Of a stretch of 64,000 nucleotides of DNA, positions 21,878 through 61,330 are shown in pieces. Origin of the DNA: a virus (taxonomy: Duplodnaviria > Caudoviricetes); IMG/VR virus record IMGVR_UViG_3300033067_000884, positions 5,650-69,649 of that record. The stretch is one strand, 5' to 3'. The notes under the pieces are model-generated. The model saw only the letters and a list, made by a program, of their open reading frames with translations, was not told where the DNA came from and did not search any database. A program made the translations under genes and the position numbers. Numbering within the stretch: the first letter of the stretch is position 1; every line of letters begins with the position of its first letter.

Positions 21878-22609
21878 CCTCAATACCTCTTATTACTAAG
21901 AGGAGTAGACTATATCATTATCCGCCCATATTTCAGCGACGGATAGTATGCGCTTCGGAGCTGCTAGCCCCTACTCTCTTTCGAGATAGTCGTTACTCTT
22001 TCCCGACCGTGTAATCTTGCGTGAGCAGAAATGGTTAATAACGCCAGGTTATTAATATTGTTATTGGTCTTGTCTCCATCAACATGGTGTACAACAAAAC
22101 CAGCAGGCATCTCTGTGATGCCCAATGCCTCACACATAACAACATTATGCTCGAATACATATCGCTGACCAACTCTTCCCGTGTACCATTCTGGCCTAAG
22201 GACTTGGTAGTATCCATGACCGTCAGCTACGCGCTCTGTCTTATAGTGATATGCATCTTTGCCTGACTTACCGTACGACGGGTTCAATTCACCTAACTTG
22301 GAATTTCTATACGACTGTCGCTTACGTGCCAATCTAGTTTCCGGTGTATATATCGTAGATATTAATTTCCATATAACGCCATAGGTTAAATCGACATCCG
22401 CGCCTATTTCGTCTAGAGTCATGTCAGTGTTCTCAAACAATTCTTGAACCCTTAATTTCTGCTCATCTGTATATATCACAGGTCTTCCCATTGTGTACTC
22501 CTTTCGAGTAGATAAGGGAATTGGCTTAGATCGGTATTGTCCACTAGGGAGTTCCACCGAGTTCACATACTTTTACATTAGTAATTACTTACTAACGCCC
22601 CAATACTTT
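21878..22609 (-). mobile_element. self-splicing group I intron (IA2-like, 732 nt) in polA
   Basis: 5' site after U in AACCCU; terminal G before AAC; splicing restores TGRMSGVNP-NFQNI; P1 CCCU/GGGG, P10 AAAGU/ACUUU, P3 GUAUGUG/CGCAUAC, P7 GACUA/UAGUC, P7.1 UCUC-GAAA-GAGA, P9 CCUCUUA-GUAA-UAAGAGG. Confidence 0.93.
21964..22491 (-). CDS. intron-encoded HNH homing endonuclease
   Basis: YVFEHNVVM...VVHHVDGDKTNNNINNL...HARLH; start MGRP after SD AAAGGAG, in the P6a loop. Confidence 0.9.
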   Translation of the reverse strand: MGRPVIYTDEQKLRVQELFENTDMTLDEIGADVDLTYGVIWKLISTIYTPETRLARKRQSYRNSKLGELNPSYGKSGKDAYHYKTERVADGHGYYQVLRPEWYTGRVGQRYVFEHNVVMCEALGITEMPAGFVVHHVDGDKTNNNINNLALLTISAHARLHGRERVTTISKESRG

Positions 22610-23710
22610 AGGGTTAACGCCGCTCATTCGTCCAGTAGCTGGCGCACCGCATTGCTTGTACCCTGGATGAATTCGCCGGGTAATAGGATTGATTTTAGGG
22701 ATAAGGCCGCTAATATATGTTCCTTCGAGCTTTGCCGCAGCAGTTCGAATTGCATGTTGTCTAAGCACTGGATGTGCGTATCCAACATCAAACTCGTCGT
22801 CTCCGCCTGATGACGCCGCCAGCTTCTTATGTTTGATTGCCCACTTGGCATCCCAATCACTTAACTCTTTCTTGCTAAGGGATGTTGTATCTACACCAAT
22901 AGCATTTAACGCCTGTAACATTTGCTTCGGGCTGCCGACATTAATTGCACTATATCCATCCCTTGAAAACGTTATCTCGTCAGCCGCGCCGGATGATATG
23001 ATTTCATCCTGTAACTTCTGCGTAGCGTCCTCAATAACGCGCATCACAACCGGCTGGGCAGCGCGTAGACGCTCCTCATTGATCTCTATACCATTATACT
23101 CAAGCTGCGATGTGATAGGAATAAGCTGACATTCAAGATTGATAATCTTGGATAAGTCCTTCTTGATCAGTTCATCCCGTTGCTGCATATAGATAGGCTC
23201 AAGAACAACTGTATCTTCCCCGGCATACGCCAGTTCTTCTTGACTAAATGGGATATTTAAATCCCGCTCGATAAATTGCTCCCGCACGGACTTGTCGAGC
23301 TTACGTCCTAGTCTCCGCTCAGTTACATCAGCAAGACTAAAGCCGCTAAAGAGTAGCCCTGCTTGGACTACTTGCTCGGCAATCATTGTACAATAGACCG
23401 GGGATGTATATACATCGGCGTTATGATACAACCATTTCCAGTCGAATACTGCATTGTGGGCTACTTTAAGAATCGCCGGATTATGGAAGATAGCCTTGAG
23501 TTGGTGTAGTACTTCAACGCCCATGCGTAAGATGTCAAAGACAAATGTAAACTCGTTAATCCCATTATTACCATGAATGGACAGTAATAGTAATGTACCA
23601 GTATGAGGGTCTAGCCCGGTTGTTTCTGTATCGAAATACACAACGGGGCATTCCAGCAAGAAGTCGATAATCCTATCAATATCTGCGTAATCAACCACAG
23701 TTTTGATCAT
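22610..23710 (-). CDS. polA: DNA polymerase family A, exon 1 (3'-5' exonuclease domain)
   Basis: YFDTETTGL, AHNAVFD, YAGED exonuclease motifs; ends ATGRMSGVNP. Confidence 0.92.
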
Positions 23711-53755: not shown

Positions 53756-54772
53756 TTACTTATTACCACGCAGAGCCTTCGCAAGCCCTGAGATATCGGT
53801 AGAAAAATCGTTACCGCTGACAATCGGGTCAGGGAAACCGCCAAAACGGGTACTCGCTGTCTGCTTGCTCTTTGACGCCACAGCAACGAGCGATTCGGAA
53901 TATGTCTTAAATTGGTCGTCGCTAAGACCGGCGATGAAATCAGCTTTCGCGTCAAACTCCTCGCCAGCCAACACAGACTTCAAGGTCTCGCGCCGGGTTG
54001 TCAGCACCGCTGCACGCGCCTGCTCTGCCTCATAATCGCTCTTAAACTTACGCAGTTCATCAAGCTCAGATGTCAGAGCAGCTACGTCTGGGCTAATCTC
54101 AGGCTCGGTAACCGGCTCAACCGGCTTGGCAAGCGCATCGACCCGCTCAGTCAGTGCAGCAACCTGCTGCTTTAGCTCTTCCACTGGGTCCATAGGTTCA
54201 ATACCCCCATCATGCGAAAGCTGATCAGTTAGTGATGCAACCTGTCGCTCAAGTTCTTTGATTCGTTCTGTTGTATCTTCTGCTGCCATAGCGAGAAGAG
54301 GAGTTCTACCACCATACGCTGGATTAGCGACGATAGTAGTTGCCGCGACTACACAGCCTGTAAACCATGTAGTACCGGCGTCATCTACATAATGGTCATC
54401 ATGATAAAGTTCCCATGAAAAGTGAACGCCACCATCACTTGCACTGGCCTTTTCTAAATGCCCGGCAAGTTCAGGAAACTCATCTTTGTAAAGAACCGCA
54501 CGTCCTATGACCTGATCGCCACGCGATTCCATATCAGTGATATGCCCGACAGGAAGTGAGAAGGAGTGGTCGCCTAATTTGCCTCGGCGGAAATCAGCCT
54601 TGACAGGTTGATCAATGCCGGTGCGGATTAGATTCTCTACCTCAGTCGGGGGGACGCCTTGCTTGTTCTTATTAGGGAGGAAATCCGTGAAAACAAATTC
54701 GAGATTTGTCTGCAAAGGGTTCTTTTCGCTTGCAATAGCTTTTAGACGACCTTCAAGTGTGGTTTTTTCCAT
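53756..54772 (-). CDS. prohead protease fused to scaffold
   Basis: NKNKQG, GDH..PVGHI, FSWEL; C-terminal coiled coil. Confidence 0.8.
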   Translation of the reverse strand: MEKTTLEGRLKAIASEKNPLQTNLEFVFTDFLPNKNKQGVPPTEVENLIRTGIDQPVKADFRRGKLGDHSFSLPVGHITDMESRGDQVIGRAVLYKDEFPELAGHLEKASASDGGVHFSWELYHDDHYVDDAGTTWFTGCVVAATTIVANPAYGGRTPLLAMAAEDTTERIKELERQVASLTDQLSHDGGIEPMDPVEELKQQVAALTERVDALAKPVEPVTEPEISPDVAALTSELDELRKFKSDYEAEQARAAVLTTRRETLKSVLAGEEFDAKADFIAGLSDDQFKTYSESLVAVASKSKQTASTRFGGFPDPIVSGNDFSTDISGLAKALRGNK

Positions 54773-55264: not shown

Positions 55265-55293
55265 TTGACAAAGCTTGACACATCTGGTATAAT
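55265..55293 (+). promoter_or_regulatory. consensus sigma70 promoter with tandem TTGACA
   Basis: TTGACA aagcTTGACAcatctgg TATAAT (17 bp). Confidence 0.85.
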
Positions 55294-58805: not shown

Positions 58806-59141
58806 ATGAGTTCATTTGCAAGTAACGCGCTGACAGCAACGATACCGAGTGGCGGGTCACTAAGCGGTCGAATACGCATCGGGGATAATGCTGTCGTAGC
58901 GATTGTTGTATCCGCCGCTATTGATGTCACATTCCTTGGAAGTCTCGACGGCGTTACATTTTATGATATTTATGACGGGGCTTCTGTCTATACCCTTGCA
59001 GTAACAGCGGGCGTATTAACAACGCTCGACTTGAATCAGTTCCTGGCCCCGCTTTGGATTAAAGTACAGTCAGGCACTACGGGTTCTCCTGTAACTGTTG
59101 GGTCAGACACAAGTATTATAGTGGTATCTAAAGAAATATAA
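58806..59141 (+). CDS. small beta-rich putative virion protein
   Basis: 111 aa between two LamG genes. Confidence 0.6.
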   Translation: MSSFASNALTATIPSGGSLSGRIRIGDNAVVAIVVSAAIDVTFLGSLDGVTFYDIYDGASVYTLAVTAGVLTTLDLNQFLAPLWIKVQSGTTGSPVTVGSDTSIIVVSKEI

Positions 59142-60160
59142 TGTCACGCGAATTACTGCTATTACTTCGCCCATCTCATTCATCAGCTCCTGCTCCTGAC
59201 CCGTGGACGAGCGTATCACTACAGCCAGATGAGACATGGGTTGCATCCGATCACGGGTTCTCTGACGGAAACATGTTAGGCTATGAACTAGAATATGTCT
59301 CCGGCACGGTTGATTTAATCGTTGTGCAAAAGCAAGTCAGTGCATTTGTGTGGACAAACATAGCATTCCTGAGCCCACTGGCATCGTATACAATTCCAGT
59401 AACAGACCCAATCAGAGTATACAATGACATCGACGGTGACCCGGCAGTATTCAGATACAGAGCGCCGGGGACGAGTTCACCATTACTAACCAATCTAGTG
59501 GCGTATTATAAACTTGGGGAGGCTTCTGATATACGCTTTGATGCAACGAACCGGGGTAATGACCTTACTCCAATAAACGCCCCGGCGAATGCTGTCGGTA
59601 AGCAGGGCAATGCATTAGAGATTATACAAGCCAGCGACCAGGAAGTAAGCACATCGACTACGACTGATTTAGCAATGGGTGATATTGACTTTACATTAGC
59701 CTTATGGGTGTATGCAAACGACCCTGCTGGTGCAACTGAATATCCATCGCCGCTCGGTAAATGGGTGCCTGATAAAGAATACATACTTTACTATGAACAG
59801 TCGAGCGGGTCATTTGGCTTTGAGATAAGTGCTGATGGTACAACGAGTACGACTGTACGGGTAGCTAGTCCACTTGTACAGGGCGATTGGTATTTTATCG
59901 TTGCGCGGCATAAAGCCAGTACAGACACGATCGATATATCAGTAAATGCTGGTACGCCAGAGTCAACAACCCATTCAGGCGGCTGTTATAACGGTGGTTC
60001 GCCATTTGAGCTGGGATATGGCTATGGTAACATTGCATATGGCTGGGGGCATTGGGATGGGCGTATTGATGAAGTAGGCGTTTGGAAGCGATACTTATCA
60101 GACGCCGAGGTGACGAGTTTATACGCAGGAGGTAATGGGGTAACATATCCTTTTAGTTAA
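59141..60160 (+). CDS. LamG/concanavalin A-like domain protein
   Basis: LVAYYKLGE, FTLALWV, WYFIV, GRIDEVGVWKRYLSDAEVTSLY. Confidence 0.85.
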   Translation: MSRELLLLLRPSHSSAPAPDPWTSVSLQPDETWVASDHGFSDGNMLGYELEYVSGTVDLIVVQKQVSAFVWTNIAFLSPLASYTIPVTDPIRVYNDIDGDPAVFRYRAPGTSSPLLTNLVAYYKLGEASDIRFDATNRGNDLTPINAPANAVGKQGNALEIIQASDQEVSTSTTTDLAMGDIDFTLALWVYANDPAGATEYPSPLGKWVPDKEYILYYEQSSGSFGFEISADGTTSTTVRVASPLVQGDWYFIVARHKASTDTIDISVNAGTPESTTHSGGCYNGGSPFELGYGYGNIAYGWGHWDGRIDEVGVWKRYLSDAEVTSLYAGGNGVTYPFS

Positions 60161-60165
60161 GGGTG

Positions 60166-60253
60166 ACGCCAATCAACGCATACCATGCTTGTATGCAAAC
60201 ACCGCCAGCATATTGTTTGTTGATTTTATCTTTACGAAGATAGGCGGGGGCGT
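60166..60253 (+). ncRNA. unassigned pseudoknotted multi-junction RNA structure
   Basis: Five Watson-Crick stems plus a 5-bp loop-to-3' pseudoknot filling an intergenic gap (see findings). Confidence 0.7.
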
Positions 60254-60267
60254 AGTTAGAGGTATAC

Positions 60268-61299
60268 ATGAGACGGTATATTTTACTGGCGTTAGTATTT
60301 ATGGGACTCTTAGTGATTCCCGCATCTGCTGCTACAGTATCACCTGGCATTTGGATTTCTCGGACGGAAATTATGTCATTACCCATGACTGGATCAGCGT
60401 GGCTTAATGTAAAAAAGCAAGCTGACTCAAACTGGGGAAGCCCAAATCTCAGCGACCTAAATAGTAAGCACGACGTTTACACACTTGCAGGGGCACTCGT
60501 TTACGCACGTACAGGTCAGCAATCATATCGCGTAAAGACCGCCAATGCCATTATGAGTGCTATTGGGACAGAGAAAGATAGTCGCGGCCTTGAGGTAAGT
60601 AGAAATATTGTATCTTACGTCATAGCGGCGGATATCATCGATTTTCGTTCGTATGACCCTGTGCGAGAGAGTACATTTCGCTCATGGCTCACTACGCTTA
60701 GAACGCAGAAAATGACTGATGGTAAAACAATCATCTCGACACATGAAGGACGACCAAATAACTGGGGCACCCACGCCGGTGCCGCTCGTATCGCTATCGA
60801 TCTATATATCAACGACCGAACTGACCTCGATAGAGCTGCGAAAGTGTTTAAAGGGTGGTTGGGAGATCGCTCTGCATATGCAGGCTTTAAATATGGTGAC
60901 CTAAGTTGGCAAGCAAATAAGTCAGCTCCTGTTGGTATCAATCCACTAGGTTCTCAAATCCAAGGCAAGAATGTCGATGGCGTACTGCCCGATGATCAAC
61001 GTCGATCTGGCGGCTTTACATGGCCTGCGCCGAAAGAGAACTATGTATGGGAAGCACTTCAAGGAGCTAGCGTACAAGCACATATGCTAAATAGAGCCGG
61101 GTATGATAGTTGGAACTGGTCGAATAAAGCGCTATTGCGCGCAACGATGTGGCTATATTCAGTCGATAATTATCCAGCAGAGGGTGATGATACATTCATT
61201 CCCTGGATAATCAATAACGCGTATGGCACATCATTCACTACGAAGCCAGCAGCTATCGGTAAGAATATGAGCTATACTGACTGGACATTGGGGCATTAA
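60268..61299 (+). CDS. secreted alginate-lyase-like polysaccharide lyase
   Basis: Sec signal peptide MRRYILLALVFMGLLVIPASAA; helical domain with PNNWGTH, DDQRR, YVWEALQ. Confidence 0.65.
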   Translation: MRRYILLALVFMGLLVIPASAATVSPGIWISRTEIMSLPMTGSAWLNVKKQADSNWGSPNLSDLNSKHDVYTLAGALVYARTGQQSYRVKTANAIMSAIGTEKDSRGLEVSRNIVSYVIAADIIDFRSYDPVRESTFRSWLTTLRTQKMTDGKTIISTHEGRPNNWGTHAGAARIAIDLYINDRTDLDRAAKVFKGWLGDRSAYAGFKYGDLSWQANKSAPVGINPLGSQIQGKNVDGVLPDDQRRSGGFTWPAPKENYVWEALQGASVQAHMLNRAGYDSWNWSNKALLRATMWLYSVDNYPAEGDDTFIPWIINNAYGTSFTTKPAAIGKNMSYTDWTLGH

Positions 61300-61308
61300 A
61301 TAAAGCGG

Positions 61309-61330
61309 GGGAGTACAACGGCGTACTCCC
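61309..61330 (+). terminator. stem-loop, possible weak terminator or processing site
   Basis: GGGAGTAC-AACGGC-GTACTCCC with a poor U-tract. Confidence 0.45.

Follow-up and report, generated by a model that had tools for sequence, protein, structure and literature searches.

The 88-nt segment at positions 60166 to 60253 of the window, by which we mean the whole 64,000-nt stretch of viral DNA analyzed here, is on comparative sequence evidence a genuine, conserved and pseudoknotted RNA of the + strand. Four further copies were found on independent metagenomic phage contigs, each lying 5' of a lyase gene. The element probably controls expression of the lyase, and we see about an even chance that it does so as a cis-acting RNA at lyase translation initiation or at the 5' edge of the mRNA, most likely by binding a ligand or a protein.

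The window covers most of a 69.6-kb IMG/VR viral contig, estimated to be 37% complete, whose genes encode a 3700-aa tail protein, a capsid-like protein, RecA, DnaB and a PolA fragment; few of its genes have PHROG matches. No host could be assigned, with the closest cultured-phage DNA polymerase being only 30% identical and PHROG and Pfam matches being sparse. In the 372-aa ORF at 22592-23710, a 3'-5' exonuclease domain is accompanied by no more than the beginning of a family A DNA polymerase domain, and the polymerase may be split across neighbouring ORFs.

Structure and conservation of the element

A sequence-only reading of this DNA had described six stems, P1 to P5 and a pseudoknot helix (PK), amounting to 34 Watson-Crick pairs in 88 nt and starting 5 nt past the stop codon of the upstream gene. 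Letter-by-letter checking of the window from 59800 to 60600 recovered every stem at its assigned position, the perfect-stem packing of the element is 34-39 pairs, and the stop codon at 60158-60 leaves the expected 5-nt gap. The segments of the element are as follows, with their state in the homologous copies:

60166..60253, + strand: whole conserved RNA element, 88 nt (86-90 nt in homologs); CM R1 scores of 103-110 bits in all five copies
60166..60170, + strand: 5' strand of P1, the outer closing helix, paired with 60249-60253; 100% paired and invariant in 5/5 copies
60171..60177, + strand: 5' strand of P2, 7 bp with 60219-60225, crossing the PK helix; 100% paired
60178..60196, + strand: P3 hairpin, 6 bp (60178-83/60191-96) with a 7-nt loop (60184-60190); 100% paired
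60197..60201, + strand: A-rich joining strand AAAYA, nearly invariant; the 5' strand of P4 in the sequence-only reading
60202..60206, + strand: 5' strand of the pseudoknot helix, partner 60243-60247; 100% paired, two pairs changed on both sides
60207..60218, + strand: variable linker, 10-14 nt in homologs, with a U-rich 3' end
60219..60225, + strand: 3' strand of P2, partner 60171-60177
60227..60242, + strand: P5 hairpin, 6 bp (60227-32/60237-42) with a UAYG loop; 100% paired
60243..60247, + strand: 3' strand of the pseudoknot helix, abutting the P5 3' strand without a gap
60249..60253, + strand: 3' strand of P1, partner 60166-60170

Because the stems had been selected in the first place for being perfect Watson-Crick helices, we measured their density with a statistic of the same kind, the largest non-overlapping set of perfect Watson-Crick stems of at least 5 bp. 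In 1000 dinucleotide shuffles this packing averaged 10.6 pairs (sd 4.9, maximum 24), against 34-39 in the element. The element also ranks first among the 7989 overlapping 88-nt windows of the 64 kb, where the runner-up reaches 28 pairs and the tRNA 26. A chance origin of the stem cluster is excluded, because its packing is far above that of the shuffles and of all other windows and because of the substitution simulation given below.

Thermodynamic stability was uninformative as support, and the packing statistic was used in its place: the minimum free energy (MFE) is ordinary on both strands (-25.7 kcal/mol, z = -0.40, on the + strand; z = -1.29 on the - strand). The nested fold of the sequence-only reading has an energy of -19.4 kcal/mol versus -24.6 for the MFE structure of the 88-mer, which is thus the more stable of the two; that structure contains CCGCC/GGCGG in nested form and neither P2 nor P4. 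A first reading of the raw sequence can therefore find real structured RNA that thermodynamic z-scores miss.

The homolog search and covariation analysis that the sequence-only reading had suggested yielded compensatory changes in P3, P5 and the pseudoknot among five sequences (alignment A1: the window, L008, L009, L011 and L059). P1, P2, P3, P5 and PK are 100% paired in all five copies, with none of their 29 pairs broken. Four pairs have changed on both sides, two of them in PK, one in P3 and one in P5. The PK changes form the series CCGCC/GGCGG, CCGUC/GACGG and CCAUC/GAUGG. In P3, the second pair changes from C-G to U-A, L059 having the intermediate U·G, the first pair is G-C or G·U, and the loop sequence varies. 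L008 has C-G as the closing pair of P5, where the other four copies have U-A. P2 shows a single change, U-A to U·G in L011, and is otherwise invariant; P1 and P2 are, in this alignment, supported by conserved complementarity rather than by covariation. The single-sided changes number three, and all of them give G·U or U·G on the + strand. Since the same three changes would be A·C mismatches on the opposite strand, the functional strand is the + strand, and the orientation originally taken from the direction of the operon is borne out.

Two controls address the specificity of this pattern. When the 3' partners were slid by 1-3 columns, pairing fell to 35-48% and no compensation remained. When the same ten substitution events were placed randomly in the paired columns, four or more compensatory pairs arose with P = 1.5e-5 and zero broken pairs with P = 1.3e-3. 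RNAalifold, which was blind to the earlier model, returned P1, P3, P5 and the CCGCC/GGCGG helix; P2 is absent from its output solely because it crosses that helix.

P4 was rejected as a helix, as only 65% of it is paired across the homologs and the region is a 10-14 nt linker variable in both sequence and length. The proposed linker-free junction of P2, P3 and P4 is therefore confined to the window copy, and with it falls the suggested topology of an exonuclease-resistant RNA (xrRNA), a junction combined with a pseudoknot from a loop to the 3' side. The strands of P2 and PK interleave and both are 100% paired in 5/5 copies, a predicted pseudoknot of the H type. The architecture supported by the alignment is one in which P1 would enclose this pseudoknot (P2 crossed with PK), with hairpins P3 and P5 occupying loops 1 and 3 and the variable linker making up loop 2. 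On the 5' side the strands of P1, P2 and P3 are contiguous, as are those of P5 and PK on the 3' side, which suggests a model of two coaxial stacks lying side by side. Unpaired columns (for example, L3 with the linker) showed no convincing tertiary covariation. The two nested sub-folds differ by 1.4-5.4 kcal/mol, with the one containing PK favoured in all homologs; both retain P1, and thus they do not resemble an on/off pair.

Variation is concentrated outside the helices: 10 of the 58 paired columns (17%) vary, versus 19 of the 32 unpaired columns (59%). Pairwise identity of the element is 81-88%, compared with 82-90% at codon positions 1 and 2 of the adjacent lyase gene and 47-64% at position 3, indicating purifying selection as strong as that at amino-acid-determining positions. 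Judged by these rates, the invariant positions of the helices reflect constraint and not recent ancestry. A coding or recoding signal was considered and rejected: the LamG stop codon is followed directly by an in-frame stop, a TAG within the element interrupts the lyase frame, and the linker differs by indels of 2 nt in either direction, which break the frame.

Homologs, gene context and boundaries

The copies came from a search with the lyase. In a large protein collection, five lyase clusters are 81-86% identical to the window lyase, and their contigs gave the four homologous copies, which derive from different samples and sources (Logan, ENA twice and JGI). The lyases behind these copies are 76-86% identical in protein. 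The homologous elements are located at:

L008: 2061-2148
L009: 3870-3957
L011: 91-180
L059: 3000-3085

No other copies were identified. The element is absent from L010, where the lyase homolog is 82% identical, and from more distant lyase homologs (<=71% identity). Among the IMG/VR lyase homologs of at most 68% identity (L002-L007), the upstream DNA is unrelated to the element, and a 12.9-bit CM match within this group was rejected as AU-rich hairpins overlapping the Shine-Dalgarno sequence (SD) rather than homology. Running CM R1 over all fetched loci produced no extra copies, none of the short N-terminal lyase fragments searched was close, and the matches of a pattern scan (46 metagenome, 2 viral (L012, L061) and 9 genome) were all attributed to chance. 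Nor did the upstream LamG protein offer a route to homologs, its best relative being 43% identical. The element is single-copy in the genome of the window. Thus, the family at present consists of five sequences in one narrow lyase clade.

At the 68% identical lyase homologs L002 (2780-2875), L003 and L004, the place of the pseudoknotted RNA is taken by a separate promoter of the TTGACA/TATTAT type and two simple hairpins. The lyases of these three loci have no signal peptide and carry an additional N-terminal domain of about 45 aa.

The features flanking the element in the window are as follows:

55265..55293, + strand: consensus sigma-70 promoter, 12/12 matches, TG-extended (TTGACA, 17 nt, TATAAT)
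60158..60160, + strand: stop codon of the upstream LamG-domain gene (59141-60160), 5 nt before P1; 0-6 nt in the four homologs
60259..60263, + strand: Shine-Dalgarno sequence GAGGT of the lyase cistron, 5 nt past P1; 3-5 nt in homologs
60268..61299, + strand: alginate-lyase-family gene (Pfam PF05426) with an N-terminal signal peptide, starting at ATG 60268

From the promoter, the + strand block runs through two small ORFs, a Dam methylase, a 263-aa ORF, a LamG protein, a 111-aa ORF and a second LamG protein to the element, and continues after it with the alginate-lyase-family gene, a 74-aa ORF, an SDR epimerase/dehydratase and a sugar C-methyltransferase. The element had been taken for the leader of this operon. 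With the operon promoter lying about 4.9 kb upstream, it is instead intercistronic, and what it leads is the lyase cistron. Its link to the methyltransferase, which had prompted the suggestion of a riboswitch for SAM or a nucleotide sugar, is weak, because in L009 the RNA and the lyase sit in another neighbourhood with no methyltransferase. The promoter at 55265-55293 points away from the - strand structural genes ending near 54772, and in L009 a strong promoter at 214-242 (11/12 matches, TG) heads the corresponding block.

The element precedes the lyase gene in every copy. The lyase start codon is ATG in two copies and TTG in three. Public annotations seem to start these lyases at the wrong codon (L008 2164, L009 3974 and L059 3102; proteins P0056-P0059 and P0177): three begin at an AUG inside the 3' strand of P3 and read through the RNA ('MQTP...'), and two begin at an internal ATG. 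Alignment to the ATG of the window and the spacing from GAGGT point to TTG starts, which would restore the full signal peptide. When 120 lyase N-termini were screened for the read-through 'MQTP' sequence, it was present only in the known copies. Directly after the lyase stop codon of the window, at 61309-61330, is a 9-bp GC-rich hairpin with a 4-nt loop; it lacks a U-tract on the + strand, was flagged as terminator-like solely on the - strand, and is missing from L008, whose lyase is directly adjoined by the next ORF.

Homology between the contigs has a sharp 5' edge. Across the 40 nt preceding P1, the copies share 15-42% identity, which places the start of homology exactly at P1 (60166). The gene directly upstream varies as well, being a LamG gene, a gene for a 204-aa product of no assigned kind, a 111-aa gene or a class II ribonucleotide reductase (RNR). 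The 263-aa and 111-aa genes are common to the window, L008 and L059, which represent related phages, yet the immediate upstream gene differs in each; L009, where the class II RNR is upstream of the element, has a different gene neighbourhood. Across these contigs, the inherited unit is the RNA together with the lyase, whatever the upstream gene, plus a small downstream ORF in three copies.

This small ORF, of 76-82 aa, lies directly 3' of the lyase (L009 5005-5253, L008 3199-3435 and L059 4135-4365). It is 70-71% identical between contigs, including the non-syntenic L009, and is absent from the window; it may be part of the same mobile module. A second small ORF, the 74-aa ORF of the window, matches a 75-aa ORF in L008. 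In L059 and in the contig of P0057, the 111-aa gene (a homolog of window 58806-59141) is directly upstream of the RNA, and in L008 the same slot is occupied by the unrelated 204-aa gene. The 339-aa LamG-domain gene of the window (59141-60160) looks inserted when the gene orders are compared.

Proposed function and alternative explanations

We searched for known families with Rfam 15, whose 4227 models include the SAM riboswitches, twister, hammerhead, HDV, pistol, hatchet, epsC, wcaG, manA and the xrRNAs. At the gathering score, the only match in the whole window was a tRNA at 2303-2385. In scans of 601 nt and 121 nt at E<=10, the only match was to the snoRNA sR4, a noise match of 8.4 bits for a model whose gathering score is 50. 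The opinion of the sequence-only reading that the cores of the hammerhead, HDV, twister and SAM riboswitch families are absent thus holds even at E<=10. Its broader proposal of a new structured RNA outside the known families agrees both with the negative Rfam result and with the five copies bearing compensatory changes. The article on an IMG/VR survey of candidate structured RNAs (PMC10690425) does not describe the element. The pipeline of that survey required at least three IMG/VR regions per candidate, and, because our scans found no other IMG/VR copy, the element is unlikely to be in its set. On the sequence evidence, the element is a new family within the cis-acting structured mRNA leaders and orphan phage RNA motifs.

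No consensus promoter or intrinsic terminator, and nothing conserved of either kind, is present inside the element or just upstream. Conserved anti-SD or alternative pairing is absent, and the predicted partners of the SD differ in each homolog; there is therefore no classical SD-sequestering platform. Neither of the usual expression platforms of a riboswitch was seen, that is, a conserved pairing hiding the SD or start codon, or a terminator with a U-tract. Downstream on the + strand (window, L008, L009 and L059), a scan for consensus terminators, which was crude, gave weak terminator-like matches and none that was strong or conserved. The three-way junction expected of an xrRNA is not conserved, and the 5' end of the element is the outer strand of P1. 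What is constant is the position relative to the ribosome binding site (RBS): P1 ends 3-5 nt before GAGGT in 5/5 copies, and the gene that follows is always the lyase.

From this arrangement we propose the following mechanism. The element would be the immediate 5' leader of the cistron for a secreted lyase of the alginate-lyase family, within a polycistronic phage mRNA. A rigid, sequence-constrained domain located 3-5 nt 5' of the SD would be placed on the platform of the 30S subunit whenever the SD is engaged, and this domain could be an aptamer or an operator, in which case the bound ligand or protein would gate ribosome loading. The start codon of three of the five lyase genes is a weak TTG. 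A bolder reading, which makes the element an aptamer or a catalytic core belonging to an undescribed phage-borne class of riboswitch or self-cleaving ribozyme that serves a secreted polysaccharide lyase, seems to us unlikely. In that event a sugar or oligouronate signal, for example, might be sensed to time release of the enzyme, and the sequence-invariant helices would mirror dense tertiary or ligand contacts.

Gating at the RBS has to be weighed against a role in processing or insulating the message. Here the element would be an undescribed self-cleaving ribozyme or an RNase target, and cleavage would free the lyase cistron and leave it with a protective structured 5' end. In all five contexts the element fills the gap from 0-6 nt past the upstream stop codon to 3-5 nt before the SD, its stem sequences are constrained beyond the needs of pairing, as they are in ribozyme cores, and its compact pseudoknot is of ribozyme-like size; the failure to find a switch-like alternative structure also fits. 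However, hammerhead, twister, twister-sister, pistol, hatchet and HDV all lack an Rfam match at E<=10, and, reasoning from the alignment and RNAalifold, the strand order is unlike the HDV double pseudoknot and the pairing unlike twister. Moreover, the outer helix P1 holds the 5' end, whereas in xrRNAs the 5' end passes through a ring. We hold this explanation to be unlikely, in which the structured 5' end would act as a stabiliser or insulator and so provide a mobile lyase cassette with context-independent expression. It is quite improbable that the element is a processive antitermination RNA of the put or EAR type, whose nascent fold would bind RNA polymerase and carry it past terminators downstream in the polysaccharide and sugar block. 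The EAR element (epsC motif) is likewise intercistronic and pseudoknotted and belongs to an exopolysaccharide operon (PMC7858274, PMC2864571), and our element is inside a long + strand operon with sugar-modifying genes after it and with the SD outside the fold. Against this, Rfam gives no epsC match, the crude scan found no strong or conserved + strand intrinsic terminators downstream (window, L008, L009 and L059), and antitermination would not account for the strict distance of 3-5 nt that the element keeps from the lyase SD.

The constant position and orientation of the element, 3-5 nt from the SD of one gene, also weigh against a small RNA that is processed from the operon transcript and acts in trans, for instance as a decoy or regulator of host or phage targets, with its lyase linkage a matter of hitch-hiking. 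Such an RNA would be a discrete domain with sharp boundaries of homology, as the element is, and the very high sequence conservation of the helices could reflect pairing in trans or protein binding; but the element has no promoter or terminator of its own and is single-copy, and we think this account very improbable. Finally, the segment might function as DNA, with nested inverted repeats bound by protein, a recombination site or a cassette boundary, or might consist of chance palindromes, so that no RNA structure would be involved. That the window copy is entirely Watson-Crick, that its MFE z-score is ordinary and that homology between phages breaks exactly at its 5' edge are all compatible with a DNA-level role. 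The homologs argue the other way: the three single-sided changes are G·U on the + strand but A·C mismatches on the other strand or as half-sites in a duplex, and the covarying PK strands are about 36 nt apart and interleaved with another helix, unlike the half-sites of dimeric proteins. With chance excluded by the shuffles, the ranking of windows and the substitution simulation, we judge an explanation without RNA structure to be extremely improbable.

Host range and biofilm interactions are shaped by the auxiliary genes with which phages degrade polysaccharides and modify sugars, and almost nothing is known of how these genes are regulated. The element is a compact pseudoknotted RNA tightly linked to one of them, and it moves with that gene between unrelated contexts. 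If it is true that the element binds a ligand or cleaves itself, it would represent a new class of functional RNA; as a constitutive insulator or operator, it would instead be a portable part of natural origin for the control of expression. At 88 nt, it is of a tractable size for probing, ligand screening, cleavage assays and structure determination.

Comparison with known structured RNAs

In function, the nearest analogues are EAR/epsC, the phage motifs wcaG and manA, and pseudoknot operators at the RBS, and the element belongs to none of these. The closest parallel in setting is EAR/epsC (RF01735) of the eps operons of Bacillales, including B. subtilis, a cis-acting, intercistronic and pseudoknotted RNA of about 100 nt with the SD outside its fold (PMC7858274, PMC2864571). 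Both are intercistronic pseudoknotted RNAs in an operon of polysaccharide-related enzymes, and in neither is the SD part of the fold. The element differs in having no Rfam match and no downstream terminators that we could find, in being tied to the RBS of one cistron, and in occurring in phages rather than in Bacillales chromosomes. The cyanophage RNAs wcaG (RF01761) and manA (RF01745) are orphan 5' UTR structures of auxiliary sugar and exopolysaccharide genes, and are riboswitch candidates without a known ligand (PMC2864571). As with the element, these are orphan structured RNAs that are phage-borne and lie 5' of auxiliary sugar or exopolysaccharide genes. The folds are unrelated, however, with no Rfam match, and wcaG and manA are widespread in marine metagenomes, whereas the element is known from five contigs and one gene family.

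The flavivirus-type xrRNAs are similar to the element in size and in combining several helices with a long-range pseudoknot, but the element has no conserved three-way junction, its 5' end is not encircled by a ring, and no Rfam xrRNA model matches it. The small ribozymes of phages (twister, pistol, hatchet, HDV-like and hammerhead) are compact, pseudoknotted, 50-90 nt long and often intercistronic, with conserved cores, and in these respects the element is like them; it differs in that no Rfam model matches it and in an order of helix strands unlike that of the HDV double pseudoknot. We considered a likeness to twister in the C-rich and G-rich segments and rejected it, as the pairing pattern differs and Rfam gives no match. 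In twister, the superficially similar segments pair with a terminal loop and not with each other.

Pseudoknot operators at the RBS offer a further model. One, the rpsO/S15 operator of E. coli, is a pseudoknotted translational operator next to the RBS. Another is the leader of T4 gene 32, which the IMG/VR survey gives as a phage pseudoknot operator at the RBS (PMC10690425). The element shares with these systems a pseudoknot directly 5' of or around the RBS, and they control initiation through a bound protein. In both of them the regulated product itself binds the RNA, whereas the product here is a secreted lyase, so that any binding factor would be a different molecule. The fold of the element is also larger than theirs, with a closing helix and two embedded hairpins.
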